DNA of 64,000 nucleotides from an uncultured Desulfobacteraceae bacterium (GTDB lineage Bacteria > Desulfobacterota > Desulfobacteria > Desulfobacterales > UBA5852), in NCBI GenBank assembly GCA_942491115.1, contig CALNZV010000007.1, forward strand, positions 194,605 through 258,604. The letters are read 5' to 3'. A program made the position numbers and the translations under genes. Numbering within the stretch: the stretch's first letter is position 1; each line of letters opens with the position of its first letter. The notes beneath the pieces are model-generated. The model made no database searches. It saw nothing but the letters and a program-made list of their open reading frames with translations, and was not told the origin of the DNA. Of the stretch, positions 8,869-45,200 are shown piece by piece.

Positions 8869-8945
<77 letters not shown>

Positions 8946-8992: not shown

Positions 8993-9225
8993 GTCTTAAA
9001 ATTTTGACACCCACCACTATACCCACCAGCCAGCTTATATATCCAAGTAAACCCAGGTAAGAGCGATGGTTAAAAACGCAGCTTCCTGCGCATGGAGCCA
9101 GAATCTCGCAGCTACAACCTCAACTCTATCCACGCCGCATTAGACCCTTCACCCGTTCATAGATCAACGGTCTCACCATCAAACCATCCTCTTAACCAAC
9201 CAAAACACACCCCGACGCGCGGCCC

Positions 9226-11457
<2,232 letters not shown>

Positions 11458-11467
11458 TTTTGAATCA

Positions 11468-11482
11468 GGGTATTTAGGGGAC
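11468..11482 (+). repeat. Left-TIR stub of element copy 1, severed by the IS110 insertion
   Basis: GGGTATTTAGGGGAC equals the first 15 nt of the element left ends at 18591 and 19108. The continuation CGCCCTTTATATTT resumes at 13211. Confidence 0.8.
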
Positions 11483-13209
11483 ATTCTATATTCCCCCTGT
11501 CAACAAAAAAATAAAAGATGAATTATCAATAAGTTATCTTTTTAGTCGGAGCCCACAAACACTTCTCCCGTCGGTATTGTATGTCGGCGAGTTTCTCTCT
11601 TCTCGGCGAACTCATGGCCTGATCGTTACAGTTATCCGGTGTCCTGCCGGAAACGGCGGCACCCATCATTCCTTATCCAGGCTTGGAGTTCAGAGAGAGG
11701 CCCGGGGATTGTCCCTCCAGAGGTTATGGCCTCAACGTCCTTTATCGGGCTCTCTCGCCGAACAAACTGCTTTGATTGTTAAAAGCGCCGCTTACACTTG
11801 CAGCAGCGCGGGATCATAATCCGTATTGTCGCGCATCATGCACCAGGCAATCACCAGCATTTTGACGGCCAGTTTCACCCGCATCTTGGTCTTGATGCCG
11901 CGCTCGCGCTCCCGCCCCTGCAGGTAGCGCGTAAACAAAGCTCGGAAGCCGTCGTTGTGATACGTGGCAATTAGCGCTGCTTGATACAAGGCATAGCGAA
12001 GGTCGCCATTGCCGCGCTTGGAGATCACCGGCACGGCCGTATCACTGCTCTTGCCGCTGCGCTTGGCATTCAGATCGTAGCCGGCCAGGCGGATAAGCTG
12101 CTTCCTGCCGGCAAAGCGGTGCGGGTTGCCGATGCGGGCGATCACCTGGGAGGCGATGTAGGGGCCAAAGCCTGGGATCGTTAACAGCCGCCGGTAAGAG
12201 GCAAAGCCCCGGCAGATGCGCTCGATGCGTTCTTCGGTATCCTCGATGCGTTCGCGCAGGCCGTTTAGGCGATCCACCAGCTGACGGGCTTCGAACCGGG
12301 CGGCATCATCCACGGGGCAGCCGACCGACACCGCAGCAGCCTCGTAGATGCGCTGCAAACGCTTGACCTGCCGTAGGCCCCGATCCCGGTCGGTGACCCG
12401 CCGGAGAAAATCGTCAAAGGATATGGCGCTGATCGTGCGCGGGTCCAGACAGCTGCGCACAATGGCCAGATTCTCTTTAAGGCAGCTGCCCCACAAGCGG
12501 TCCATCTCGGGGAAGTGGCGGACCAGAAGTCCGTTGCGAATCTGCATGCGCACGCTGTGTTCATCGCGTTTGAGCCGCTTGCGAAGCGACAGCAAGCAGC
12601 GCAACGCGGTAAGCTCCGCCGAAGGTTGTTCGAAGAACTGGCATTTGCCCTGGGCCATCAGATCAGCCACATTGGCGCTGTCCTTGGTATCGTGCTTGTC
12701 CCAGCGGCCGTCGAGACTCTCGCGGTTGTCGGCAATGGCTTTGCTGGAGACCAGGACCAAAAACCGTCTCTGCTCCAAAAGCCAATTGGCCAATGGCTTG
12801 TGGTAATTGCCGGTGGGTTCCAATCCGAAAGCGACTCTTGTGCAGGAGTGGGTCACCATCAGTTGTTCAACGCGTTCGATGAGCTGTTCAAAACCGGTGC
12901 GGTTGTTGTCAAAGATCTGGCGCTTTAAAAGGGTCTTTCCGGTGGCGGTGCCGAAGAAGGCATGGTGGCGCTCCTTGGCCACATCGATGCCTACGAGCAG
13001 ATAATCCCGGCAGCCGCGCACAGTGGAGCGAAATTGACAGAATGCCTCATACCTGTTAGCTTCTTCGTTACTCATGATAGCCTCCTCGTAGCTCGTGTTG
13101 AAGGTTTGCCCACCTTTGTGTTACCTGGAGGCTATTTTCTTTTCAAGGCGATAATTACTTTTATTTTTACTACTCTTGGAGGTATATTCTCTAACTATTT
13201 CAATATATA
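11483..13209 (-). mobile_element. IS110-family insertion sequence (~1.73 kb), no terminal inverted repeats, flanked by AC on both sides
   Basis: Boundaries inferred by comparing the interrupted element TIR with intact copies. The two ends carry an outward TTGACA and a TATATA that would form a promoter on circularisation. The 309-nt non-coding end 3' of the transposase gene suggests an IS1111-like layout. Confidence 0.85.
11792..13075 (-). CDS. IS110-family DEDD transposase
   Basis: N-terminal LLVGIDVAKERHH (DEDD/RuvC-like domain) and C-terminal LLTIPGFGPYIASQV...SKRGNGDLRYALYQAA (Transposase_20-type domain). 427 aa. RBS GAGGAGG lies upstream. Confidence 0.93.
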   Translation of the reverse strand: MSNEEANRYEAFCQFRSTVRGCRDYLLVGIDVAKERHHAFFGTATGKTLLKRQIFDNNRTGFEQLIERVEQLMVTHSCTRVAFGLEPTGNYHKPLANWLLEQRRFLVLVSSKAIADNRESLDGRWDKHDTKDSANVADLMAQGKCQFFEQPSAELTALRCLLSLRKRLKRDEHSVRMQIRNGLLVRHFPEMDRLWGSCLKENLAIVRSCLDPRTISAISFDDFLRRVTDRDRGLRQVKRLQRIYEAAAVSVGCPVDDAARFEARQLVDRLNGLRERIEDTEERIERICRGFASYRRLLTIPGFGPYIASQVIARIGNPHRFAGRKQLIRLAGYDLNAKRSGKSSDTAVPVISKRGNGDLRYALYQAALIATYHNDGFRALFTRYLQGRERERGIKTKMRVKLAVKMLVIAWCMMRDNTDYDPALLQV

Positions 13210-13829
13210 ACGCCCTTTATATTTATACATTTACTTGCGAAGTCGTTTTTGATACTGATCGAGCATGCCAAGGCGAGCGCGAATCGACGCACCGGGTGCG
13301 ATCCACCATATCATTGTCAGGGGAATCGAGCGGCGCAAGATATTCGTTGACGACGAGGACCGCCATGACTTTGTAAAACGGCTGGGCGATGTGGTTGGGC
13401 CGTCGTCCAATCGATTCGCAAGACCGGTGTATTCTTGAAAAGCGACGAACGCATTTTGGGTAGCAGCGAATTTGTGGATAAGGTCTTGGCTGCTGCCCAG
13501 GAGGTCATGCAGAACAAGTATGCACTGGCTGCTAAGGGTATTGGTTTTGACGAGGTTGTGGCTGCGGTGTCGAGACGGTTGTCGATTAAACCGCAAGCGT
13601 TGGTGGGTCCTTGCAAAGAGCGCATCATTGTAAAGGCCCGGCAGTTAGTGTGCCACTGGGCTGTGAGTGAACTGGGGTTATCGATGACCGAAGTGGCGAA
13701 GAGGTTGGAGATATCCGTGCCAACGGTAAGTGCTGCGGTAAAAAAGGGGAAGCAAATTGTCCTCAGTGAAAGATTGGTGCTGGCTGATCTATTGAATATA
13801 GAAATATGAAGGGCGTCCCTATCGTTCCC
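13210..13829 (+). mobile_element. Copy 1 of the ~0.63-kb TIR-bounded element (right 620 bp; the left 15 bp is at 11468-11482)
   Basis: Near-identical to 19108-19740. The right end ATAGAAATATGAAGGGCGTCCCTATCGTTCCC is the imperfect inverse of the left end GGGTATTTAGGGGACGCCCTTTATATTTATAC (23/32 matches). Confidence 0.85.
13265..13809 (+). pseudogene. Internally deleted Y1 (IS200/COG1943-like) transposase with C-terminal DnaA-C-like HTH
   Basis: 57-aa N-terminal ORF (MPRRARIDAPGAIHHIIVRGIERRKIFVDDEDRHDFVKRLG) stops at 13436-13438. A second frame from 13435 encodes SDERILGSSEFV...WAVSELGLSMTEVAKRLEISVPTVSAAVKKG. The segment that normally carries the HUH motif and catalytic Tyr is absent. Confidence 0.75.
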
Positions 13830-13859
13830 GCTAATGCCAGTACCGACCGGGTACGGCGG

Positions 13860-14575
13860 GGTGACACCATTGGCTATGATGGAGGGGAATCTCTCTGGTG
13901 ACGGATAGAAGGCCACGAGACCCGTACACTGCGACGACCGCGGCTTGTCCTGAAGGTGGAATTCGAAGGATAAGGAATACGATATGACGTGGCCGGGATT
14001 GTCCAGAAAAAGACGCCGGGGGATACGTTACTTTGAATATGATGAGTAAGCGAAGACCGCCGAGATTACGGATCTTCAGAAGATATGTTTATACTAGATA
14101 CGGGAATGGAATCGGGCGGATAGCGGGTATTTCTGACCTTGGAACCGTGATTATGATTACGACGCCCGCGGCCGTTTATACAAGAGACGTAATCTTGAAA
14201 ACTACGTGTTAATGAAATTTTCTTTGGGGCAGGTTGAAAGCTATATATCCAAAGATAGACGTTGAGTTTCCCGCGGTGTGATGGGAGGATATAGAAGCAA
14301 AGAGTAAATTAGGTGCGGATATGGATTGTTTCGGTATGGCGTTTAATTTTGGATCGCCGTCGGATTTATAACCCGGAGGCGACACCATGATAGCAGTATG
14401 GATTGGGTGCTTGAGGTGGTAACGGGAGTAGATGGAGAGGTTTACCACGATGAAATGGAACGTGAGGGTGTAATTGGACGATTTCTGCCTATAACCAGAC
14501 TACCAGTATGATGCCTAATGCTAATGATAGACAATATCTGGGAATTTGATACGCTAGAAAAGTGGGCAACGGTGA
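13860..14575 (+). pseudogene. Degenerate RHS/YD-repeat region
   Basis: YD-type motifs are scattered over different frames and interrupted by stops, e.g. DYDYDARGRLY (14149-14181) and RYFEYDE-stop (14026-14049). Confidence 0.5.
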
Positions 14576-15651
14576 CGGAAGAGGGCAGCAAAGAAATATA
14601 CTACACCGGATCAACAGCTGGCTTGTGACGGAGACATACCAGATGTTGTGCAGGATGCCGCCGGCAACACAACCTCCATCGGCCAGATGGATCTGATCTA
14701 CAATCAACGGAATCGCTTGATCAGGGCCGAAGACAATGGGGTGGTGGTGGGGGAATACGAGTACAATGCCATGGGACAGCGGGTTACCAAAACCATAGAT
14801 GGGGCGACGACCGTATTCATATATGACTTTGATGGCAATATCATCGCCGAAAGTGACATAGACGGCACCTTGCAAAAGGAATATATTTATATTTTGGGAA
14901 ACCGGTTTGCCATGATCGATTCGGCAACCTATTATCTTTATTTTTACCATAACGATCATTTAGGCACCCCGATACTGATGACAGATGTTTACGGGGACTT
15001 GGTGTGGGAGGGCAATTATGCGCCCTTTGGTGATGTCGAGATCAGCGAGGCATCATCTATCGAGAACAACTTCAGGTTTGCGGGCCAATACTATGACCAT
15101 GAGACTGACCTGCACTACAACTACCATCGATACTATGATCCGGCCACTGGAAGGTATCTCACGCCCGACCCGATTGGGCTGGCTGGGGGGATTAATCTGT
15201 ATGCGTATACTGAAAACAATCCGATCAATCTGATTGATCCTTTGGGATTGGACACCACCACCAATAGACTTAATTTTACATTCATTTTTGGAGATATAAC
15301 CATAGGTAGGGCAACTGATGACAAAGGTAACTCTGGATTGGTTTTCTCCGCCGCATTAGGCTTTTCCGCTTCAGTGGGCGTAACTTACGGGAAAACTACT
15401 ACCAATGCGCTACTATTGATAGCCTCCAGGGATGGGGTTCCTCTGCCGGAATAGCCGCTGGAAGCCCCTTATTATTTTTGGGAGCTGAAGTTAATAAAGT
15501 AAAAACCGGGCGATTGAATGAGAATACTTACATGGGTGAGGATTGGGGTGTCGGCTTAGGAATCGGCCTACCATCAACAGGGCAGGTATTTACAGGGATT
15601 ACAGCTCTATATAAAATGGAAGCTGAGGCTGAAAATGTCAACTGTGATTAA
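14576..15651 (+). pseudogene. RHS repeat-associated core domain plus C-terminal toxin tip (5'-degraded, frameshift near 15420)
   Basis: YD repeats then the core motif FRFAGQYYDHETDLHYNYHRYYDPATGRYLTPDPIGLAGGINLYAYTENNPINLIDPLGL. No start codon, open only from 14576. The Gly-rich tail continues in another frame to the TAA at 15649-15651. Confidence 0.85.
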
Positions 15652-16615: not shown

Positions 16616-17032
16616 TCGAATGAGTATAAGTTTGGAATCCGTGGAGATGCTTTGTCGCCTAATGAAATCACTACGGTCTTGGCAATTTCTCCGACAAAAG
16701 CATGGGAAAAAGGGGCTGTATACAAATCGAAATATCAAGATAAAGATGGTTCAGTAAAAAATCGTCAAGCTAATAGGCCCTGGGGCATTTGGGAGCTATC
16801 GTCGACAGAAGAGACATCCTCTGAAGATATTGAAGACCATGCCCAAATAATTATTAAGAAGTTGTATTCTGCACAAAATATAATCAAAGAGTTGATAAAG
16901 AAACCTAGTTTGCAAGTTTATATCAGTGTTTGGTGGCAACCTGAGGGCGGATATGGTGGGTTTACATTAACCGCAGATAGTATTAATAAACTTAGTTTAT
17001 TGTGTAGAGAGATGAATTTCTATTTTTCCTGA
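16616..17032 (+). CDS. DUF4279-family protein (putative orphan immunity protein); start uncertain
   Basis: FGIRGDALSPNEITTVLAISPTKAWEKG...WGIWELSS...DIEDHAQIIIKKL...GGFTLTADSINKLSLLCREMNFYF fits the DUF4279 pattern. No in-frame ATG; the track uses the TTG at 16652. An ATG at 16602 is out of frame, so a frameshift is possible. Confidence 0.65.
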   Translation, partial: SNEYKFGIRGDALSPNEITTVLAISPTKAWEKGAVYKSKYQDKDGSVKNRQANRPWGIWELSSTEETSSEDIEDHAQIIIKKLYSAQNIIKELIKKPSLQVYISVWWQPEGGYGGFTLTADSINKLSLLCREMNFYFS

Positions 17033-18590: not shown

Positions 18591-19107
18591 GGGTATTTAG
18601 GGGACGCCCTTTATATTTATACATTTACTTGCGAAGTCGTTTTTGATACTGATCGAGCATGCCAAGGCGAGCGCGAATCGACGCACCGGGTGCGATCACC
18701 ATATATTGTAGGGGAATCGAGCGGCGCAAGATATTCGTTGACGACGAGGACCGCCATGACTTTGTAAAACGGCTGGGCGATGTGGTTGGGCCGTCGTCCA
18801 ATCGATTCGCAAGACCGGTGTATTCTTGAAAAGCGACGAACGCATTTTGGGTAGCAGCGAATTTGTGGATAAGGTCTTGGCTGCTGCCCAGGAGGTCATG
18901 CAGAACAAATGTGCACTGGCTGCCAAGGGTATTGGTTTTGACGAGGTTGTGGCTGCGGTGTCGAGACGGTTGTCGATTAAACCGCAAGCGTTGGTGGGTC
19001 CTTGCAAAGAGCGCATCATTGTAAAGGCCCGGCAGTTAGTGTGCCACTGGGCTGTGAGTGAACTGGGGTTATCGATGACCGAAGTGGCGAAGAGGTTGGA
19101 GATATCC
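18591..19107 (+). mobile_element. Copy 2 of the 0.63-kb element, lacking the last ~112 bp and the right TIR
   Basis: Starts with the left TIR GGGTATTTAGGGGACGCCC. Collinear with copy 3 up to GAGATATCCG, then runs directly into the left TIR of copy 3. Small deletions lie in the N-terminal ORF. Confidence 0.85.
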
Positions 19108-19740
19108 GGGTATTTAGGGGACGCCCTTTATATTTATACATTTACTTGCGAAGTCGTTTTTGATACTGATCGAGCATGCCAAGGCGAGCGCGAATCGACG
19201 CACCGGGTGCGATCCACCATATCATTGTCAGGGGAATCGAGCGGCGCAAGATATTCGTTGACGACGAGGACCGCCATGACTTTGTAAAACGGCTGGGCGA
19301 TGTGGTTGGGCCGTCGTCCAATCGATTCGCAAGACCGGTGTATTCTTGAAAAGCGACGAACGCATTTTGGGTAGCAGCGAATTTGTGGATAAGGTCTTGG
19401 CTGCTGCCCAGGAGGTCATGCAGAACAAATGTGCACGGGCTGCCAAGGGTATTGGTTTTGACGAGGTTGTGGCTGCGGTGTCGAGACGGTTGTCGATTAA
19501 ACCGCAAGCGTTGGTGGGTCCTTGCAAAGAGCGCATCATTGTAAAGGCCCGGCAGTTAGTGTGCCACTGGGCTGTGAGTGAACTGGGGTTATCGATGACC
19601 GAAGTGGCGAAGAGGTTGGAGATATCCGTGCCAACGGTAAGTGCTGCGGTAAAAAAGGGGAAGCAAATTGTCCTCAGTGAAAGATTGGTGCTGGCTGATC
19701 TATTGAATATAGAAATATGAAGGGCGTCCCTATCGTTCCC
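19108..19740 (+). mobile_element. Copy 3 of the 0.63-kb element, complete (both TIRs)
   Basis: Left TIR 19108-19140 and right TIR 19709-19740. Same two-part pseudogene as copy 1 (C-terminal ORF 19346-19720). A few SNPs versus copies 1 and 2. The last 10 bp TATCGTTCCC is repeated at 19741-19750. Confidence 0.88.
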
Positions 19741-19781: not shown

Positions 19782-20715
19782 ATGCTCATTCAGGTTCCCT
19801 TCAGATCATCAACCAGGGTGTTAAGGCTTGGGGTAAGTGGAGATCAATGAATCGATCTTTGGTTCCGAATCTTAGGGGCGCAGACCTAAGCCATCAAAAC
19901 CTATGTGGAGTTGACTTTAGTAGAGCAGATCTCAACGTTGCCAATCTCAGGAATACAATGCTCTGCAAGGCTGATCTAAGTGGAGCAAACCTTTCTGAAG
20001 TAGACCTAAGCGGGGCAGATCTTAGTGGTGCAAAGCTCTTTGGACTAATTTTACAGAGGCTAATTTGAGCGGTGCAAATTTATCTAACGCATCCATCAAT
20101 TCCGCCTCCTTCGCAAAGGTGAATCTTTGCGATGTTGATGGATTAGATACCATCTATCACAGAGGGCCCTCTTCACTCGGTATAGACACGCTCATCAAGT
20201 CCAAAGGCAAAATACCAGAATTATTCCTCCGTGGATGCGGTGTTCCAGAATCAATAATCCAATACATTCCAACTATGATTGGCAGCGCGATCGAGTTTAT
20301 ACATGCTTCATAAGCTACTCCCATATAGACAATCCTTTGCCAAACGCCTACACGATACTCTTCAAGGAAGGGGTATCAGATGCTGGCTTGACGATCACCA
20401 GATGCTCCCTGGTGACGATATTTATGCGCAAGTAGACCGTGGTATCCGCCTCTGGGACAAAGTCCTTCTCTGTTGTTCTGAGCACTCTCTTAAAAGCTGG
20501 TGGGTGGACAACGAGATCGATATTGTTTGAAAAGAGCGCCGGTTGATGACGGATGAGGTAAGAAGTATTGTCTCTGATTCTTTGACCTTGACGGATACTT
20601 TTTAGTGACGCCTGGGAAGCGGCAACAGCAATAATCGCTGCTGCTGATTTACTGGATGGGAATCAGACAATGCAAGTTCGAGGCGGAGGTCGAGAAAGTT
20701 GTGAAGCGCTGAGGG
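19782..20715 (+). pseudogene. Pentapeptide-repeat / TIR-domain fusion protein, several frameshifts
   Basis: RBS GGAGG plus the ATG at 19782. INQGVKAWGKWR, then A(D/N)LSGA pentapeptide repeats, then TIR (CFISYSH...GIRCWLDDHQMLPGDDI...KVLLCCSEHSLKSWWVDNEI...FEAEVEKVVKAL). These are read across at least 4 frames. Confidence 0.7.
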
Positions 20716-20799
20716 CTGATACGGGGGTGAGGTGCCGGAGCGAACTTATCATTACCAAGGAGGTTGTGGCTACCAAGACCATATTACAGCCTGATCATG

Positions 20800-21686
20800 G
20801 TAATTTGGATGAGTGAGAGAATCCTGATGTGATTCAGATTTTAGGATGAAAACTCCAGAAAAAGTATCTTAGAAGGTGGATTTAGCGGGGCAGATCTAGT
20901 GGAGCGAATTAAGAAAACAAGACTTGTGGAGCGATTTTGCGGTGCAGACCTTGAGGACAACTCGGAAGCTTTTCCTGTATGCAAACTGAGGGAGCTAACT
21001 CAGGAGATCTATCTTTCGAAGCGAGCTTCATATGCGATTTTATACGGCGCTATCTCAGAGGGCATGCATTAGCGGATTTCAGAGCGGACCTCAGTGGGGC
21101 AGATCTTAAGCCTAAAGCTCGGGGCGAATTTATAACTGTGATGTTATGGTATTTTGTTGGGGTGTATACTCGAAGGCATCAAGGAGCAAAAAAACCTCAG
21201 AGTAACCCCTCCAAATGACCGGCGGTCTACATCGATAACCTCGAAGTCGCCCAGTTCGTTTACCTCCTCCTCAACAACGATAAGATTCGCAGTGTCATAG
21301 ACACCATTGGAGAAAAGGGTGTCCTCATCCTCGGGCGTTTCACGCCCGAGCGCAAAGCTGTCCTTGATGCCATACGGGACAAACTGCGAGAATTTGGGTT
21401 TGTCCCGATGATGTTCGACTTCGATCCATCTGACAAACGAGACTTCACTGAAACGATACGGATTCTCGCAGGAATGAGCAGATTTATCATTGCTGACATC
21501 AGTGAACCGAAGTGCATTCCCTTGGAGCTACAGGCAATTGTTCCTGACTATGCCATCCCTTTGGTACCGATTTTCCACGTCCAGCAAGAGCAAGAAGCCA
21601 AAAAGCCTTTCGCTATGATCAAAGACCTTCAAAAGCATGATTGGGTCTTCGATGTACTTGAGTATGAACATCGGGTATCCTCCTGA
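20800..21686 (+). pseudogene. Second pentapeptide-repeat protein remnant with a conserved-looking C-terminal alpha/beta domain
   Basis: Degenerate repeats (GADL.., ADLSGADL) in 20860-21216. Open frame 21219-21686 without a start: VLILGRFTPERKAVLDAIRDKLREFGFVPMMFDFDPSDKRDFTETIRILAGMSRFIIADISEPKCIPLELQAIVP. Domain family not identified. Confidence 0.4.
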
Positions 21687-21798
21687 TTCGTTTGAAGAGG
21701 AATCGTAACCCAGCTAGGATATGGCTGACAGCTTGTTGCTTCAAAAGGTGGAAGGTATACGAAAAAGACGACTTGGGGAAGGTAAATAAGGAACTTAT

Positions 21799-22779
21799 AT
21801 GACCTTTCAATCCCTGCTCGACTTCGTCGAGCGCAAGATGACCCTGTCCCACATTTATCAGCCCCTGATGCTCCGCATCTTGATCGAAGCTGGTGGGACC
21901 GCTACGATTAGACAACTTGCTCACGGATTCCTTGATCACGATGAAAGCCAACTCCAGTATTACGAGGATCGCATCAAAAAGATGCCCCTGCCGGTACTCA
22001 AACGGCGGGGAATAGTCTCTCGAGACGGTGACCTCGTCACCCTGAACTGCAAGAAACTGACTTTCGAGCAGAAGGCGCAGGTTCTGATGCTCTACGAACA
22101 GCGTATGCGTGAGTTCATCATGAAGCGGGGTATCGACCTGTGGGGTTACAGGCTCCTCGATACCGATCCTATCCCCGGTAGCCTTCGGTATCAGGTTATC
22201 AAAGAGTCGGATGGCAGGTGTGCGCTTTGCGGAGCCACCAAGAAAGAGCGCCCTCTGGACGTGGACCACATCATCCCTCGTTCAAAGGGCAGTAAAACCG
22301 AGTATGAGAACCTTCAGGTGCTATGCTCCAAGTGCAACCAGGAAAAAGGCAACAATGACGATACCGACTTCCGAAACGATGACCAACCCGAATCCATGCC
22401 AGACTGCACGTTTTGCTATAAGAACATCAAGTCCCGCATCATCAAGGGCACTGATAACGGTACCGTATTCGCCATCAAGGATGCCTATCCGGTTACCGAG
22501 GGACACACCCTCGTGATCCCCAAGAGGCACGTTGCCGAGTATTTCGACCTCTCGGATGCCGAAAGGCGTGATGCCGATAGCCTCCTGAAGTACCTGAAGC
22601 AGAAAATGACCAAGACAGATCCCAGTATCACCGGATACAACATTGGAGTGAATTGCGGGGAGTCGGCAGGGCAGACCATATTCCACCTGCACTATCACCT
22701 GATTCCCCGGAGGGATGGGGACACCGAGAACCCCAGGGGTGGGGTCCGAGGGGTGATGCCGGGGAAACGAAGCTACTGA
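21799..22779 (+). CDS. wHTH-like N-terminal domain + HNH endonuclease + HIT (histidine triad) fusion protein
   Basis: HNH: CALCGATKKERPLDVDHIIPRSKG...NLQVLCSKCNQEKGN. HIT: AYPVTEGHTLVIPKRH...GQTIFHLHYHLIPR. Intact 326-aa ORF in a region where nearly every neighbour is disrupted. Confidence 0.85.
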   Translation: MTFQSLLDFVERKMTLSHIYQPLMLRILIEAGGTATIRQLAHGFLDHDESQLQYYEDRIKKMPLPVLKRRGIVSRDGDLVTLNCKKLTFEQKAQVLMLYEQRMREFIMKRGIDLWGYRLLDTDPIPGSLRYQVIKESDGRCALCGATKKERPLDVDHIIPRSKGSKTEYENLQVLCSKCNQEKGNNDDTDFRNDDQPESMPDCTFCYKNIKSRIIKGTDNGTVFAIKDAYPVTEGHTLVIPKRHVAEYFDLSDAERRDADSLLKYLKQKMTKTDPSITGYNIGVNCGESAGQTIFHLHYHLIPRRDGDTENPRGGVRGVMPGKRSY

Positions 22780-22796
22780 ACCAACGGGAACCAACC

Positions 22797-24218
22797 ATGG
22801 CTGACGTATTCATCAGCTACGCGCGCGAGGATCTCGAACGGGTTCGACCCATCGTAGGTGCCATTGAGGACGCTGGATGGTCTGTTTTTTGGGACAGAAA
22901 ACCCCTGCGGGTAAGACATGGCGGCAATATATTGGAAAAGCGCTCGATGAGGCTAAATGTGTCATCGTTGTGTGGTCAAAATCATCGATAGAGTCTGACT
23001 GGGTAATGGAGGAGGCGGATGATGGTCGTCAGCGAAGGATACTGATCCCGGTTACGATTGAAGATGTGGTTCCTCCGCTTGGTTTCCGGTCAATACAACA
23101 CGAGAACTTGAGTGACTGGACAGGAAACCCGGAACACCGGAGGGCAAAAAGCCTGCTGCAATCAATCGAAGGGATCGCTGGGAAATCCCCTCAGGGAAAA
23201 TCGCCGGTTGAGACAGTTCAAAAAGAAACCACCGCAGAACCCTCCACCGAAACCGGCCTCCAAAGACAAAAAATCTGCCCCGAAGCGCAAGACCCGTTTC
23301 TTCTTCAAATTGGGACCGATGGTTGTCTCACTTACGGTCGCTGCCGTCGCCCTAACTGTCGGTTATATCTGGTTCGGTGACAAAGAGACCAGCATTGCCC
23401 CTTCAACTCGCCCGCTTCGCAAGAAAAGTTATCTGGCGATGTCAGTGACGGTGTTGGACTTGAGGCGAAAACCAAGGGTAAACCTTTCGAAGAGCTAAGC
23501 GAGGAAGATCCAAAAACACCCAGCGAACTCCCAAAATCCCTTACCAACAGCATTGGGATGACATTTGTAGTGGTTCCTGCGGAACATTAGTGATGGGTAG
23601 TGATGAATGAGACGGAGCAGCCGGTTACAGGTCACCATCCGGAACCTTTTTACATCCAGACTACGGAGGTGACTCAAGGGCAGTGGGCGGCGGTCATGGG
23701 GGAGAATCCCTCGCATTTCAAAGATTGAGGTGACGACTGCCCAGTTGAAAATGTGAGTTGGGATGGTGTCAAGGCGTTTATGCAAAACTCACGCATGGAG
23801 GACGGGGATACCGCCTTCCCACCGAGGCTGAATGGGAATATGCGGCCCGAAGTGGCGGCAAGGATCAGACTTATGCCGGCGGCGAGAACTTGGACGAACT
23901 GGGATGGTACCTCGAAAACAGCAATGGCCAAACCCACCCGGTGGGGCAAAAGAAACCCAACGGCCTGGGGATCTACGACATGAGCGGCAACGTGTGGGAA
24001 TGGGTGGAAGACGATTGGCATATAAATTACGAGGGTGCCCCGGAGGACGGTCGTGCCTGGTCGACAAACCCAGGGGCGCCGACCGGGTGATCCGCGGCGG
24101 CAGCTGGGGCGTCAGTGCCGGGGTCGGCCGCGCGACGACGCGCGGCAGCGGGACCGACATTCTTCGCGTCAGCGGTCTGGGCTTTCGTCTCTCCAGGTCC
24201 GTTACCCTTGGCCCTTGA
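22797..24218 (+). pseudogene. TIR - transmembrane - FGE/SUMF1 (formylglycine-generating-enzyme-like) fusion protein, multiply disrupted
   Basis: MADVFISYAREDL...WSVFWDRK / PAGKTWRQYIGKALDEAKCVIVVWS (TIR). TM helix LGPMVVSLTVAAVALTVGYIWF. FGE: LTNSIGMTF..VTQGQWAAVMGENPSHFKD[15 protein letters not shown]...[15 protein letters not shown]...[11 protein letters not shown]...RVIRGGSW. At least 5 frameshifts or stops. Confidence 0.8.
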
Positions 24219-25246: not shown

Positions 25247-26659
25247 ATGACCATAAAAAGTAAAATAACCTCCTGGTCGACTCGCCTTGTGGTGGGCTAT
25301 TCCGTGGAGAGCGATGACCCCAATTATCGCCGCAGAATAATCATGCTCAATGTGATTACGTATATTGCCATCGCCAGCCTCATACCTTTAGGCGTCACAG
25401 CCCACACTTATGGGAACACTGTTCTCGGCCATCTTGACCACCTCATGGCTGGAGTGCTGATTGGGTTGCTGGTGCATCTTCATTTCAGCAGGCAGTACTA
25501 TTTTGCAGTGAGCGTCGGCAGCTTTTTGATGGGACTGTTTTTTATCTATTTATTTGTAACGGGTGGGCAAGACAATTCGGGGCATCTGTGGCTCTATACC
25601 TTTCCACTGTTTGTCAATTTTCTTTTAGGGGCTCGGAAAGGACTCATCTCCAGTTTTATTCTTCTCATTATCTGTGCGGTATATTTGTTTGCTCATCCCC
25701 AATGGTCATCAAAGCTGCAAGCATATCCTGATAGCTTCACATACCGCTTTATTGTGTCTTATCTCCTCGTCCTTATCTATTCATTTGTCTTTGAACAGCT
25801 GCGAGAAAGGAGTTTTAGTCAGTCATTGCAGAGGACCCAGGAGTTGGAAAAAGCCAGCCGGGCCAAGAGTGAATTTCTGTCGACCATGAGCCACGAGTTG
25901 CGCACACCACTCAATCACATCATCGGATTCACGGAACTTGTGATGGACCAGCATTTCGGGACATTGAATGAGACCCAGTCCGAATATCTCAACGATGTAC
26001 TGTCGAGCAGCAAGCATTTGCTGTCTCTGATCAACGATATCCTGGATTTATCTAAAATTGAGGCCGGAAAGATGGAACTCAGTATGAATCCCATCAATCT
26101 CTCGGATTTGCTGAATCGGTCTCTGCAAATGATCAAAGAGGAGGCCGAAAAAAAGCGCATAAGGATTGAGTCACAACTGGAGAATCTTCCCGATCCATTC
26201 ATGGCCGACCAAAGAAAGGTAAAACAAATACTCTACAATCTGCTATCGAACGCATTGAAATTCACACCGGAAGAGGGAAAAATTACGCTTTCGACCACGT
26301 CCCATCGGAGCATGGTGGCCAACGCTTCTGAGCCATTGATGGCTAATAGGCCTCGTGTCGCCGGACAGGCCAAGAACGACGGTGCTGAAAATTGGATCCA
26401 GGCGGTGGAAATCATTGTATCCGACACCGGTGTCGGGCTAGAAAATGAGGATACGGAACGCATTTTCGAGAAATTCGAGCAGATTGACGGCACTTATAGC
26501 CGAAATTTTCAGGGAACAGGTTTAGGATTGGCATTGACGCGCAATCTCGTCAATCTCCATGGCGGCAGCATTTGGGCAAGAAGCAACGGCGTCGGCACGG
26601 GTTCCAGCTTCCATGTCCTTTTACCAAGCAAGCCGATCCGATGTGAGGGGATTTCATAG
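25247..26659 (+). CDS. Membrane sensor histidine kinase (multi-TM N-terminus, HisKA, HATPase_c)
   Basis: About 5-6 hydrophobic helices, H box SEFLSTMSHELRTPLN, N box LLSNALKFTP, G2 GTGLGLALTRNL. No response regulator adjacent. Visibly AT-richer than the core genes. Confidence 0.9.
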   Translation: MTIKSKITSWSTRLVVGYSVESDDPNYRRRIIMLNVITYIAIASLIPLGVTAHTYGNTVLGHLDHLMAGVLIGLLVHLHFSRQYYFAVSVGSFLMGLFFIYLFVTGGQDNSGHLWLYTFPLFVNFLLGARKGLISSFILLIICAVYLFAHPQWSSKLQAYPDSFTYRFIVSYLLVLIYSFVFEQLRERSFSQSLQRTQELEKASRAKSEFLSTMSHELRTPLNHIIGFTELVMDQHFGTLNETQSEYLNDVLSSSKHLLSLINDILDLSKIEAGKMELSMNPINLSDLLNRSLQMIKEEAEKKRIRIESQLENLPDPFMADQRKVKQILYNLLSNALKFTPEEGKITLSTTSHRSMVANASEPLMANRPRVAGQAKNDGAENWIQAVEIIVSDTGVGLENEDTERIFEKFEQIDGTYSRNFQGTGLGLALTRNLVNLHGGSIWARSNGVGTGSSFHVLLPSKPIRCEGIS

Positions 26660-42200: not shown

Positions 42201-45200
42201 GGTTCCGTCCGGGTATGGGGGTTAGGGGAGGGGTGAAAGACCATAGGCAGCAGGGATGCTGCGGCGATCACGCCGAGATCCCCGATCCCCGTCGGGGCCA
42301 GGCCGAGCAGCCGCCTCAGGGGGGGAACGACGAAAGTCAACCCCTGAAAGGCCAGTGAGCCCCAGACAGCCATATTGAGGTAGGGGTTCGGGGGCAGCGG
42401 ATCCGCCGAATGGATGGCGCCGGATTCCCTGCGGCAGTTGAAGGCATGAAGGAGCTGGCCCAGGGTAAGCGCCTGGAATGCCAGGGTTCCCGCCCTTGCC
42501 CCCTGGCCATATCGCAGCAGTCCGTAGCCATAGGCCCCCAGGGCTCCACCGGATATGGCGGCTGCCGAGAGCATCATGGACCGGTACTCGTCCCCGGTAA
42601 AAAGTGGGGCGCCCGTGGGCCGGGGGGAACGCTCCAGCACGTCGGGTTCGGGCGCCTCCATTGAGAGGGAAAGGCCGGGAAAGATATCGGAGATGATGTT
42701 GATCCAGAGCAGCTGCATTACGTTCAGGGGAGAGCCGATCCCGAGGCCGATGCCGGCCGTCATGACCATGATTTCGCTGAAATTGGTGGCAAGAAAGAAC
42801 CGGACCGACTTTCGGATGTTCTGGTAGATACCCCGACCATCCTTCACAGCGATGATGAGGGTGTCCAGATTGTCCTTCTGGAGGACCACATCGGCCACTT
42901 CCCTTGCGATGTCAGTTCCGGACTGCCCCATGGCGATGCCCAGATCGGCGGCCTTGAGGGCCGGGCCGTCGTTGATGCCGTCTCCGGTCATGGCAACGGT
43001 CTTTCCATTGGCCTGGATCGCCTGGACGATTTTCAGCTTGTGTGCGGGGCTGACCCGGGAATAGACAAAGACGTGTTTGGCGATGGCCTGGAGCACCTCG
43101 GAATCCAGGGAGGTCAACTCGGCGGAGTCCAGAATCTCCAAAGGTTTGTGGCCGGCGATATTCAGGTGACTGGCGATGGAAAAGGCGGTTGGACTCTGAT
43201 CTCCGGTGATCATAATGGTGTCGATGCCGGCCCGGTGGAACACCGGAATCAAAGCGGAAACCCCTGGCCGAATCGGATCGGCCATGCCCACGAGCCCGAT
43301 CCACACCAAATGGCCGTTGACATCCGACGGTACCGCCCCTTTGAACGTCCCATAGGCAAGACCAAGAACCCTCAAGGCACCGCCAGCCATCTGGTCGTTT
43401 TCCGACTCGATCGCATCCCGCATCTGTCCGGACATTTCCTCCAATCGACCATGGACAAGGGCTTCACCACAGAGGCCCAATACCTCCATGGGACTGCCCT
43501 TGACAAAAACGACACCGCCTTCCGGGGCCGCGTGGCGAGTGTCCATAAAAAGCCGGTTTTCCGATCGATGGGTGATCTTGAGCATGGGATGGGACGCCCG
43601 GAGCTCTCGGACGTCGACTCCCGCCCTTGCGGCCAGGTGAACCAGGGCATTTTCCGTTGCTGAACCGTGAAGGAGGAGGTCTCCACTGCCGTCGATGCCG
43701 TTGATTTCAGATTCGTTGCACAGGGCGCAGCAATGGATAAGGGCCTTCCGATTGGCCGGATGGATCCTGCCGACAGCGGACCGCACGCTCTCCTGGCTGG
43801 CCCCGTCGACATCCGTTCGTTCCATGGAGGTGAACAGGCTCGTGACGGTCATTCGGTTTTCCGTCAGAGTGCCCGTTTTGTCTAAACATATGGTTTCGAT
43901 GGCGCCAAGGGTTTCGACCGCCTGAAGACGCCGGATGAGCACATGGTGTTCCCGCATCCGGCGAATGCCCAATGCAAAATTGATGGTCGCCGCCGCCGGA
44001 AGCCCCTCCGGCACTGCAGACGCCGCAAGGGATATGGCCGTTCTCAGCATAATCAGGAGTCCGTAGCCCCGCATCAGCCCCAGAACGAACACGGCCCCGC
44101 AAATCACCCCGAAGGCCATGACCAGTTTGTCTCCCATCACCCGCAACTGTCTTTCGATTGGCGTTTCGGGAGTTTGGGTATCGTCCAGCAGCTTCTGGAG
44201 GCGCCCGATCTCGGTATCCGGCCCTGTGGCCACCACCACTCCCCGGCCCTGTCCGCCGGTGATGAGGGTGCCCATGAAAGCCATGTTGCTCCGGTCGGCC
44301 AGGGGCGTTCGCTTGATGCGCAGGGTGCCGGGGGTTTTCAGCACCGGCATACTCTCTCCGGTCAGCATGGACTCGTCGATGCTGAGATGGTCGGAATCGA
44401 TGACCCTGCAGTCTGCGGCCACGTACATGCCGGGTTTGAACTCGATGATGTCCCCCACCGTCACGTCTCTGGCGGAGATGTCCGTGGCATTGCCGTCGCG
44501 AATGACGATCGCCCTCGGGTTGATGTAGTGTTTGAGGGAACTGATGGTTTGCTCGGCGCGCCGCTCGGTGACAAAACCGAGATAGGCATTGGCCGCGACC
44601 ACTCCCACGACCACGATGGCATCGATGACGCCGCCGGTCACCATCGACACGCCGGCCGCAGCCGCAAGCAGATACACCGGTAACGAGTTGATCTGCCCCC
44701 AAAGGATATCCCCTCTGCTGCGGGTGCGGGCATCGGGAAGGGTGTTTGCGGGAAGCCGCCGGAGGCGGTCAAGGACGATTGGCGTGGTCAATCCCCTGTC
44801 AAGGTCGGTATCCAGATGCTCGATGAGCCGACGGTGTCCCATGGTGTGCCATAGGGTAGTGTCCTGCTCAATCCCCCCGTCGGCATGGAAAAGACGCAGC
44901 GTGGTCTTCACTATCTCCTTATATCGCGAAGCCGTTTTTTCGGACGGTTCGGTCCCTTCTTTCGAGACCGGCGGGGAGGACGTCGCGGACGCTGCAAGGA
45001 AGGCCCGCTGTTCATCCAGAGATATCGCCTCTGTGGTGATTACCTGGTGGATTCGGTCGGCGAGGGAACGGCTGGACCATGCGCTGTCATACCGAAGGAG
45101 AAGGGTTCCGGTCGTATGGCTGGCGCGGATGCGTCGAACGCCGGGCTCTCTTTTCAGCCGGGCCTCCAGAAATCGCTTCATCAGGGAGGACCGGTGAAGC

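Follow-up and report, generated by a model that had tools for sequence, protein, structure and literature searches.

Single-gene, restriction-like nucleases of defence islands are known, and the closest described counterparts of the gene considered here are GmrSD, BrxU and SspE, in which a DUF262 NTPase is combined with a DUF1524 HNH-like nuclease, and the type IV enzymes of the ScoMcrA (SRA-HNH) and Mrr types. Among proteins of the histidine triad (HIT) superfamily, only ThsC of Thoeris, a standalone HIT protein of about 150 aa encoded beside ThsA and ThsB, has so far been listed with a defence system. ThsC is an uncharacterised accessory present in 2.4% of Thoeris systems (PMC8565338). A 64,000-nucleotide stretch of DNA from an uncultured Desulfobacteraceae bacterium (contig CALNZV010000007.1; hereafter the window) contains a gene, at positions 21799..22779 of the plus strand, in which an N-terminal winged helix, an HNH nuclease domain and a HIT domain form one polypeptide. 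We see about an even chance that this gene encodes a nuclease of a defence or restriction-like kind that requires both active sites to function. What is new relative to the known single-gene nucleases is the catalytic HIT module together with the putative N-terminal reader domain.

The gene is one uninterrupted open reading frame, from ATG to stop, that encodes 326 aa, and its start methionine is supported by 35 homologs in which M1 is aligned with it. Its features are as follows.

21788..21793, plus strand: Shine-Dalgarno-like AAGGAA, 5 nt 5' of the start codon (read from the sequence)
21799..22779, plus strand: coding sequence of the winged helix-HNH-HIT protein, 326 aa plus stop (open reading frame and translation, homolog alignment, ratio of nonsynonymous to synonymous substitution rates, dN/dS)
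21799..22173, plus strand: N-terminal domain, aa 1-125, winged helix plus long helix (AlphaFold model, conservation)
22174..22392, plus strand: HNH (beta-beta-alpha-metal) nuclease domain, aa ~126-198 (Pfam, conserved residues, dN/dS)
22393..22716, plus strand: HIT domain, aa ~199-306 (Pfam, sequence and fold matches in the Protein Data Bank (PDB), invariant histidines)
22717..22776, plus strand: conserved C-terminal tail, aa 307-326 (invariant alignment columns)

The HNH region (aa 141-194) matches the Pfam profiles HNH_5 (E 1.8e-15; 57 bits, cutoff 27.5) and HNH (E 3.5e-14; 53 bits, cutoff 21.4). The motifs read from the sequence are C141xxC144, D156-H157, N171 and C176xxC179-N180; the D-H pair, the metal-binding Asn, the two CxxC zinc pairs and a profile score above the curated threshold place the domain in the HNH superfamily. 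The HIT region (aa 219-306) matches PF01230 with an E-value of 5.6e-20 and 72 bits (cutoff 21.5). Its histidine triad is H296-L-H298-Y-H300-LIPRR, and a zinc-type C203xxC206 pair is located in the same domain; the HxHxHxx motif and the above-threshold profile score assign it to the HIT superfamily. Compared with the PDB by sequence and by fold, the HIT domain has as its best matches a mixture of Hint-like, Fhit and Ap4A phosphorylase proteins with similar E-values, and all NCBIfam matches are far below their cutoffs. The C-terminus is a Gly/Arg-rich tail in which AlphaFold confidence is low (predicted local distance difference test, pLDDT, about 42) and for which there is no characterised counterpart; the invariant residues in the 36-sequence alignment are R304-R305, D308, P312, G314-G315, R317, P321 and the terminal Y326. 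The intact fusion with these HNH and HIT motifs, proposed in a preliminary description of the window made from the sequence, is confirmed by the reading frame, the Pfam matches and the motifs.

The three triad histidines, H296, H298 and H300, are invariant among the 36 aligned sequences, and the HNH residues C141, C144, D156, H157, N171, C176, C179 and N180 are either invariant or at least 90% conserved. Comparison with the two closest relatives yields a dN/dS of 0.081 (locus L083) and 0.072 (locus L001), with values for the individual domains of 0.03-0.14 and a value of 0.03 for the HNH domain relative to L083. The ongoing selection that had been surmised from the integrity of the gene proved to be strong purifying selection (dN/dS 0.07-0.08), with every domain separately constrained.

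The family is large, unnamed and patchily spread over many bacterial phyla and archaea. In public data, full-length clusters (about 324 aa) with 59-89% identity number more than 120, and more distant full-length relatives, with 40-56% identity, are known from Bacteroidota, Alpha-, Beta- and Gammaproteobacteria, Synechococcus, Lentisphaeria and Nitrososphaerota archaea. Annotation of the members goes no further than 'HIT domain-containing protein' or wrongly labels them 'ATP adenylyltransferase'. PADLOC v2 returned no full-length, system-specific match, only domain-level matches for the fusion, for the split partner described below and for variants. Pfam and NCBIfam likewise yielded domain-level matches only, and full-text literature searches found no paper on defence or restriction that brings HNH and HIT together. 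In these four sources, then, the gene does not belong to an already characterised restriction family, an objection that the preliminary description had raised against itself. The genomic surroundings were compared in about 42 full-length homolog loci, of which 15 are from GTDB genomes, 10 are distinct loci in assemblies whose genes carry Pfam annotation and 17 are from IMG/VR contigs.

Similar to GmrSD, BrxU and SspE, the protein is a single polypeptide, is island-borne and has no cognate methyltransferase; in addition, a His-Me-finger nuclease is fused to a nucleotide-binding and -hydrolysing domain. GmrSD_N genes neighbour the family in two loci, and a fold resembling that of the N-terminal domain occurs inside a DUF262 protein. 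However, the nucleotide module is not a ParB-like DUF262 but a HIT domain, which acts through a covalent histidine-nucleoside monophosphate (His-NMP); the nuclease belongs to the classical Cys4 HNH type (PF01844/PF14279) instead of DUF1524, and there is no sequence homology beyond the HNH core. The likeness to the ScoMcrA (SRA-HNH) and Mrr-type enzymes is the combination of a reader domain with an HNH nuclease; genes of these types adjoin the family at L092, L098 and L001, and the N-terminal domain is found fused to Mrr_N-HNH_2 and to RE_AspBHI_N. Nonetheless, the putative reader here is a winged helix and not SRA, SBD or Mrr_N, and the catalytic HIT domain is additional. As in type IV enzymes, a nuclease is joined to a candidate reader (winged helix-HNH) with no obligatory methyltransferase, one being near in only about 6 of the 42 loci. 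The best HNH-level hidden Markov model (HMM) matches are those to IscB (E 9.6e-14) and Septu PtuB (E 2.4e-10), but the similarity to PtuB and to IscB/Cas9-type proteins is limited to the ~60-aa HNH core. A PtuA ATPase, RuvC and a guide-RNA context are absent, and no conserved ATPase neighbour is present among the homolog loci.

The N-terminal domain (aa 1-125) has no sequence match in Pfam, PHROG or the PDB. Its AlphaFold model, obtained with a 24-sequence alignment, is a winged helix followed by a long helix, with a pLDDT of 84 and a predicted template modelling score (pTM) of 0.75. A fold search of the PDB returned only generic winged-helix proteins (E2F-DP, ORC WH, MarR/ArsR regulators and Sso10a), the best with an E-value of 0.03 and none at or below 1e-3. 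The 'winged-helix-like' N-terminus of the preliminary description is therefore right at the level of fold, without a specific known relative. The invariant residues are I19, Y20, P22, L23, G33, T36, R38, D48-E49-S50-Q51, Y55, M62 and P63. A profile search identified 1,451 clusters at the 50% identity level, in which the domain (N) occurs, besides N-HNH-HIT, as N-HIT with no nuclease (variant P0130, on a contig of only 894 nt), as N-HNH with another C-terminus, as N-Mrr_N-HNH_2 and as RE_AspBHI_N-N. When the model was compared with the predicted viral structures of BFVD, the sole whole-domain matches were inside a DUF262 (GmrSD-type) protein and an AAA ATPase of one contig. The domain is a mobile module, recombined with Mrr_N-HNH and AspBHI_N modules in the way that the sensor domains of modification-dependent (type IV) restriction enzymes are. 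Two specific identities were considered and rejected: neither a phosphorothioate-sensing SBD nor SRA is among the fold matches listed, and homology to the N-terminal region of the split HNH partner received an hhalign probability of 0.4%.

The surroundings of the homologs are consistently restriction, defence or mobile-element DNA, in agreement with the anti-phage context proposed earlier and not with a housekeeping one. No partner gene is constant across the loci. Among the Pfam families encoded within three genes on either side in 17 loci, ResIII is found in 5, SLFN-g3 helicase in 4, MazG-like in 4, GIY-YIG in 3, GmrSD_N, DUF3427, PLDc_2 and integrase in 2 each, and RE_HpaII in 1; no family reaches more than 5 of the 17. 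Mrr is at position +1 in L001, and an SRA_ScoMcrA-HNH gene lies upstream in L092, overlapping the start codon, and at +1 in L098. Other homolog loci carry Abi_alpha at -1 with a type I restriction-modification (R-M) system downstream, NERD with an integrase and a transposase, NERD in a conjugative-element backbone, insertion sequence (IS) elements nearby with CBASS about 7 kb away, Dcm, NOV_C and Vsr modules (L086), and a BglII-type endonuclease; DUF3427 with PLD and a polyvalent protein are among the remaining neighbours. A large serine recombinase is encoded 1-5 genes away in 9 of the 17 proviral IMG/VR contigs.

Three recurrent arrangements were observed in these neighbourhoods. A GIY-YIG plus SLFN-g3/DUF2075 helicase protein with a MazG-like pyrophosphohydrolase recurs directly upstream of the HNH-HIT gene in 3-4 unrelated genomes (L006 7418-9996 and 11235-11579, L010 7912-9929, L014), and may be either a separate defence pair or a preferred neighbour. 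In Desulfobacterota-like metagenome contigs (L083, L089, L092, L093) a variable hotspot is flanked by cpYpsA/DUF6794-SNase and an HU gene, and its cargo varies among NUDIX, SRA-HNH, HNH-HIT, a BglII-type endonuclease, Abi_alpha and type I R-M. A shared integration hotspot was rejected for the window, from which the cpYpsA-SNase-HU flanks of the relatives are missing. Finally, in the proviral contigs L099-L101, L104, L105, L108, L109 and L111 the HNH-HIT gene is cargo beside a large serine recombinase of ~440 aa, which resembles that of the Bradyrhizobiaceae locus L005, and is accompanied by two small conserved reading frames of about 150-184 aa.

The mobile surroundings bear on a different explanation, in which the gene is selfish or serves competition: a free-standing HNH endonuclease would spread itself or exclude rival elements and plasmids, and would contribute to phage defence only incidentally, if at all. 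Integrases, serine recombinases, transposases and conjugation genes often adjoin, the gene is present on 17 predicted proviral contigs, and DNA homology to the closest relative stops exactly at its 3' end. Yet there is no intron, intein or homing-site context, and known homing endonucleases lack such a conserved set of three domains that includes a catalytic HIT domain. Moreover, none of 50,697 GenBank phage records and 72,556 plasmid records (PLSDB) carries the full-length gene; among viral and plasmid sequences it is seen only on IMG/VR contigs, which are mostly proviral. We consider a selfish element improbable.

The pairing of HNH with HIT is not confined to the fusion. In 15 loci of Bacteroidales and Sutterellaceae a HIT domain with the conserved tail (HIT+tail) is encoded directly downstream of a ~356-aa protein made up of a helical N-terminal region and HNH_4. 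The corresponding features are listed below.

L039 6923-8862; also L045, L047, L048, L055, L062, L064-L066, L071, L072, L074, L075, L080 and L030: split HNH_4/HIT+tail module
L088 5974-7441; NC_006824 87953-89271: further cases of the split HNH_4/HIT+tail module

The HNH_4 protein of the split module is about 340-356 aa long, and its HIT partner is either alone or fused to a class I S-adenosylmethionine (SAM) methyltransferase domain; among the Bacteroidales methyltransferase-HIT fusions, the forms of 365-373 aa bear an extra C-terminal extension resembling a helix-turn-helix (HTH). The gene order is reversed, HIT then HNH, in Polaromonas and Aromatoleum plasmids. The split module is absent from PADLOC and is reported here as a two-gene module without prior description. 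On an Acinetobacter lwoffii plasmid (L142 3363-5002) its HNH partner is paired with nothing but a small SAM methyltransferase, immediately 5' of a type I-F CRISPR-Cas system, and on a Marinomonas plasmid (L144) it is unpaired, beside WYL and McrBC genes. The Acinetobacter methyltransferase was not accepted as a homolog of the HIT-fused methyltransferase of Bacteroidales, with which it has only motif I in common. Because HNH and HIT are fused in one lineage and conserved as neighbours, in either order, in others, gene organisation supports a real functional coupling, and the partnership recurs independently in the form of adjacent separate genes.

The methyltransferases in these modules are relevant to the possibility that the gene is the endonuclease subunit of a conventional R-M system whose methyltransferase was lost from the decayed island. 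C5 DNA methyltransferases, often with Vsr and usually divergent, are encoded within a few genes of some homologs (4 of the 17 GTDB loci; L086, L096, L097), the split systems have HIT fused to a SAM methyltransferase domain, and the Acinetobacter split-HNH partner pairs with a SAM methyltransferase alone. However, about 36 of the 42 loci are without a nearby methyltransferase, and where one occurs it is often accompanied by another candidate endonuclease (NOV_C/DUF3883). The HIT-fused methyltransferase is a small class I protein in whose sequence no DNA-methyltransferase signature is recognisable. An orphan endonuclease would, furthermore, be lethal without its methyltransferase, whereas the gene here is undamaged and under purifying selection. 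A lost R-M partner is thus an unlikely origin.

Together with its tail, the HIT domain constitutes a distinct HIT subfamily. It also occurs as a standalone protein of about 125-135 aa, and the tail is common to the standalone HIT proteins, the methyltransferase-HIT fusions and phage phrog_19494, which matches with an E-value of 7.5e-35. On phage contigs, standalone HIT+tail genes lie 1-3 genes from DNA methyltransferases (MboIIA/DpnA-like, Dam-like) in nine loci, which suggests that they serve in phage clusters for DNA modification or counter-defence. The phage loci include L115-L117, L121 and other IMG/VR loci, and L087 corresponds to gp3-gp4 of phage phiSASD1. The HIT+tail gene is directly downstream of a gene of the PAPS-reductase fold in phiSASD1 and three genes from one in L122; of 30 viral loci, only 1 shows the pairing again. 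A link to phosphorothioate or sulfur, consisting of a sub-threshold TIGR04096 match of the methyltransferase domain, a sub-threshold NF045808 match of the HNH domain of a variant and the PAPS-reductase neighbour in phiSASD1, was considered too weak.

The HIT superfamily includes aprataxin/Hnt3, a DNA 5'-deadenylase that resembles the present protein in combining a HIT domain with a DNA-binding module in a DNA-break context. The gene could accordingly encode a DNA-repair or end-processing enzyme that joins aprataxin-like removal of 5'-AMP or nucleotidyl adducts to a structure-specific HNH nuclease and serves mobile-element maintenance rather than defence. SRAP, HhH-GPD, Vsr and NUDIX genes are present in some neighbourhoods, N-HIT proteins without HNH exist, and standalone HIT+tail members look housekeeping. 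The HIT domain lends the aprataxin analogy, which was drawn in the preliminary description, no specific support: no aprataxin is among the 60 PDB sequence matches and 50 fold matches listed, of which the best are Hint, Fhit and Ap4A phosphorylase, and the motif is HxHxHxxPRRxGD. The C-terminus is not an aprataxin-type zinc finger, and the family is bacterial and archaeal. The distribution is patchy and island-borne, no repair gene is a conserved partner, and the neighbours are mainly restriction or abortive-infection genes. Overall, a repair function seems doubtful.

The favoured reading, a defence or restriction-like nuclease, can be extended to a mechanism. The protein would be a self-contained, horizontally mobile, single-gene nuclease in which HNH cutting is coupled to HIT nucleotide chemistry, a proposition as open to being right as to being wrong. 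HIT enzymes are obligate dimers, and for this reason a homodimer is proposed, formed through the HIT domain with a possible contribution from the long helix of the N-terminal domain. Foreign DNA would be recognised by the winged-helix module, most likely through a modification or a structure, as in type IV restriction enzymes, and the two HNH sites of the dimer would cut it. The HIT domain would couple cutting to nucleotide chemistry, most plausibly as a nucleotide-binding or hydrolysis switch that licenses or resets the nuclease. Such a switch would be analogous in logic, not in ancestry, to the NTP-regulated DUF262 of GmrSD, BrxU and SspE, and would operate via the covalent His-NMP. Processing of nucleotidylated DNA ends by the HIT domain would be less likely than a switch. 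The activity suggested in the preliminary description, either nucleotide-gated or directed at DNA ends, may be regarded as a reasonable hypothesis.

A variant that we regard as a long shot has the HIT domain act on the DNA itself, either by removing, after the nick or cut, the 5' AMP placed by ligase or by capping the 5' phosphate with NMP, such that the breaks become irreparable. In the first form, stripping of the AMP would abort resealing in a futile cycle that burns ATP or NAD. To our knowledge, such 'cut-and-block-repair' defence has no precedent. If true, it would explain the occurrence of this HIT subfamily beside HNH nucleases and phage DNA methyltransferases, as well as the winged-helix-HIT fusions.

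Several observations weigh against the favoured reading of a nucleotide-coupled defence nuclease. The family has no characterised member and none in PADLOC, and its association with defence islands is qualitative, without a background control. The inter-domain geometry of the full-length model is unreliable (pTM 0.41), and we only infer dimerisation and the regulatory role of the HIT domain. The N-terminal domain has no relationship to a known modified-DNA reader (SRA, SBD, Mrr_N, McrB_N) detectable in the Pfam, PDB, PHROG and fold searches; its sole tie to type IV readers is indirect, through the co-occurrence with Mrr_N and AspBHI_N in other proteins, and its BFVD matches are marginal (TM 0.66-0.69, E 2e-3 and 2.5e-2). 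In about 6 of the 42 loci the gene has a divergent C5-methyltransferase/Vsr module next to it, an arrangement that fits poorly with a 5-methylcytosine-dependent enzyme and leaves room for an R-M-type reading. Finally, many standalone HIT+tail genes are in housekeeping-looking contexts; therefore the subfamily is not exclusively conflict-related, and the HIT domain could keep an ordinary small-nucleotide role. With regard to the interpretation offered in the preliminary description, the defence-type context, the selection and the uncharacterised family stand, whereas the link to a neighbouring TIR gene does not.

This link was based on a TIR reading frame that begins with an ATG at 22797, and the 17-nt gap between it and the HNH-HIT gene is correct. 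The reading frame is, however, a multiply frameshifted pseudogene. It is one of two decayed genes adjacent to the HNH-HIT gene, identified as pseudogenes by comparison with L001, a syntenic relative of 83% identity.

19784..21686, plus strand: decayed upstream gene with pentapeptide repeats, a TIR_2 fragment and the C-terminal domain of the 398-aa neighbour in L001 (tblastn against L001, translation, Pfam)
22797..24215, plus strand: downstream TIR_2 plus FGE-sulfatase pseudogene (tblastn against the 498-aa ortholog in L001, Pfam, sequence)

The upstream gene is disrupted by changes of frame and, near 21216, by an in-frame stop; its TIR_2 fragment is at 20279-20530 (Pfam). The downstream gene is scattered over at least three reading frames, with the first frameshift near 22885-22900 and TIR_2 at 22877-23380. 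A TIR gene was found only in the vicinity of the window gene and of its two closest relatives, and none in about 40 other loci. The TIR gene is at +1 in the window, at +4 in L001, where Mrr, a hypothetical gene and SRAP intervene, and at -3 in L083, and its orientation also differs. These varying positions therefore indicate shared ancestry of one island and not functional pairing, and the system does not include the adjacent TIR gene.

Hence it is very improbable that HNH-HIT is an effector or regulator of Thoeris-like TIR signalling in which the HIT domain senses or degrades the NAD-derived signal of the adjacent TIR protein. The 17-nt spacing, the TIR genes near both closest relatives and the match of the HIT domain to the PADLOC ThsC2 model ('Thoeris type II', E 2.6e-9) would fit such a role. 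Nevertheless, the TIR gene is frameshifted while HNH-HIT is undamaged, and the ThsC match is at the domain level and weaker than that to the generic Pfam HIT profile (35 versus 72 bits). Thoeris would be expected to have functional ThsB and ThsA genes adjacent and conserved across homologs; here nothing resembling ThsA was seen, the adjacent TIR gene is a pseudogene that is not conserved and, in contrast to the standalone ThsC, the HIT domain is fused to a nuclease.

The gene lies inside a low-GC stretch (43-53% versus 58-65% in the flanks). The surrounding island, about 8.9-25.2 kb, lies between tRNA-Met (8869-8945) and an undamaged histidine kinase at 25247. Within it are a poly-G/poly-C block, an IS110 transposase, three IS200/RayT-like copies, an RHS tail, DUF4279, the two TIR_2 fragments and an FGE-sulfatase fragment. 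Since the genes outside the island are long and undamaged, the decay is local and real rather than a matter of assembly quality, and an assembly error behind the broken neighbours is unlikely. The preliminary description had called HNH-HIT the only large undamaged reading frame of the island, which holds apart from one exception, the undamaged 427-aa IS110-family transposase (DEDD_Tnp_IS110 plus Transposase_20; 11792-13075, minus strand). Of the SMODS/SLATT, TIR and RHS remnants it had proposed, TIR_2 and the RHS tail are present and SMODS/SLATT was not confirmed: Pfam gives no such match in the window, and the sole structure match, to CdnC, is non-significant (E 0.49).

Directly after tRNA-Met, at 9100-11500, more than 2 kb of poly-G/poly-C low-complexity DNA have a GC skew of up to +0.6 and reading frames of poly-Gly/poly-Pro. 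Either an unusual repeat or an artefact of sequencing or assembly could account for this block, and the integration end of the island may lie here. The three near-identical IS200/RayT-like Y1 transposase elements with a DnaA_C-like HTH (13231-13916, 18625-19287 and 19142-19720) are each split over two reading frames, and the last two are in tandem or overlap. A C-terminal fragment of an RHS core, with its toxin tip gone, is at 14648-15454, and an undamaged DUF4279 gene follows about 1.2 kb later, at 16652-17032; this stretch may be an orphan immunity-type remnant. Elsewhere in the window, ARAGORN reports a 97-nt 'tRNA-Asp (anticodon atc)' at 44555-44651 on the minus strand, within a reading frame of 1064 aa, which is probably a false positive.

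If the favoured reading of a defence nuclease is true, the gene would represent a compact, single-gene (~1 kb) immune nuclease family that extends across bacteria and archaea. HIT chemistry, with its covalent histidine-nucleotide intermediate, would enter anti-phage defence, where it has so far appeared only as the ThsC accessory. With two separable active sites in one gene (H157 and H298), the protein would be a test case for the coupling of nucleotide turnover to DNA cleavage, and the split two-gene versions, with or without a methyltransferase, would be natural dissections of the same machinery. The family may also reveal a new DNA-reader winged-helix domain.

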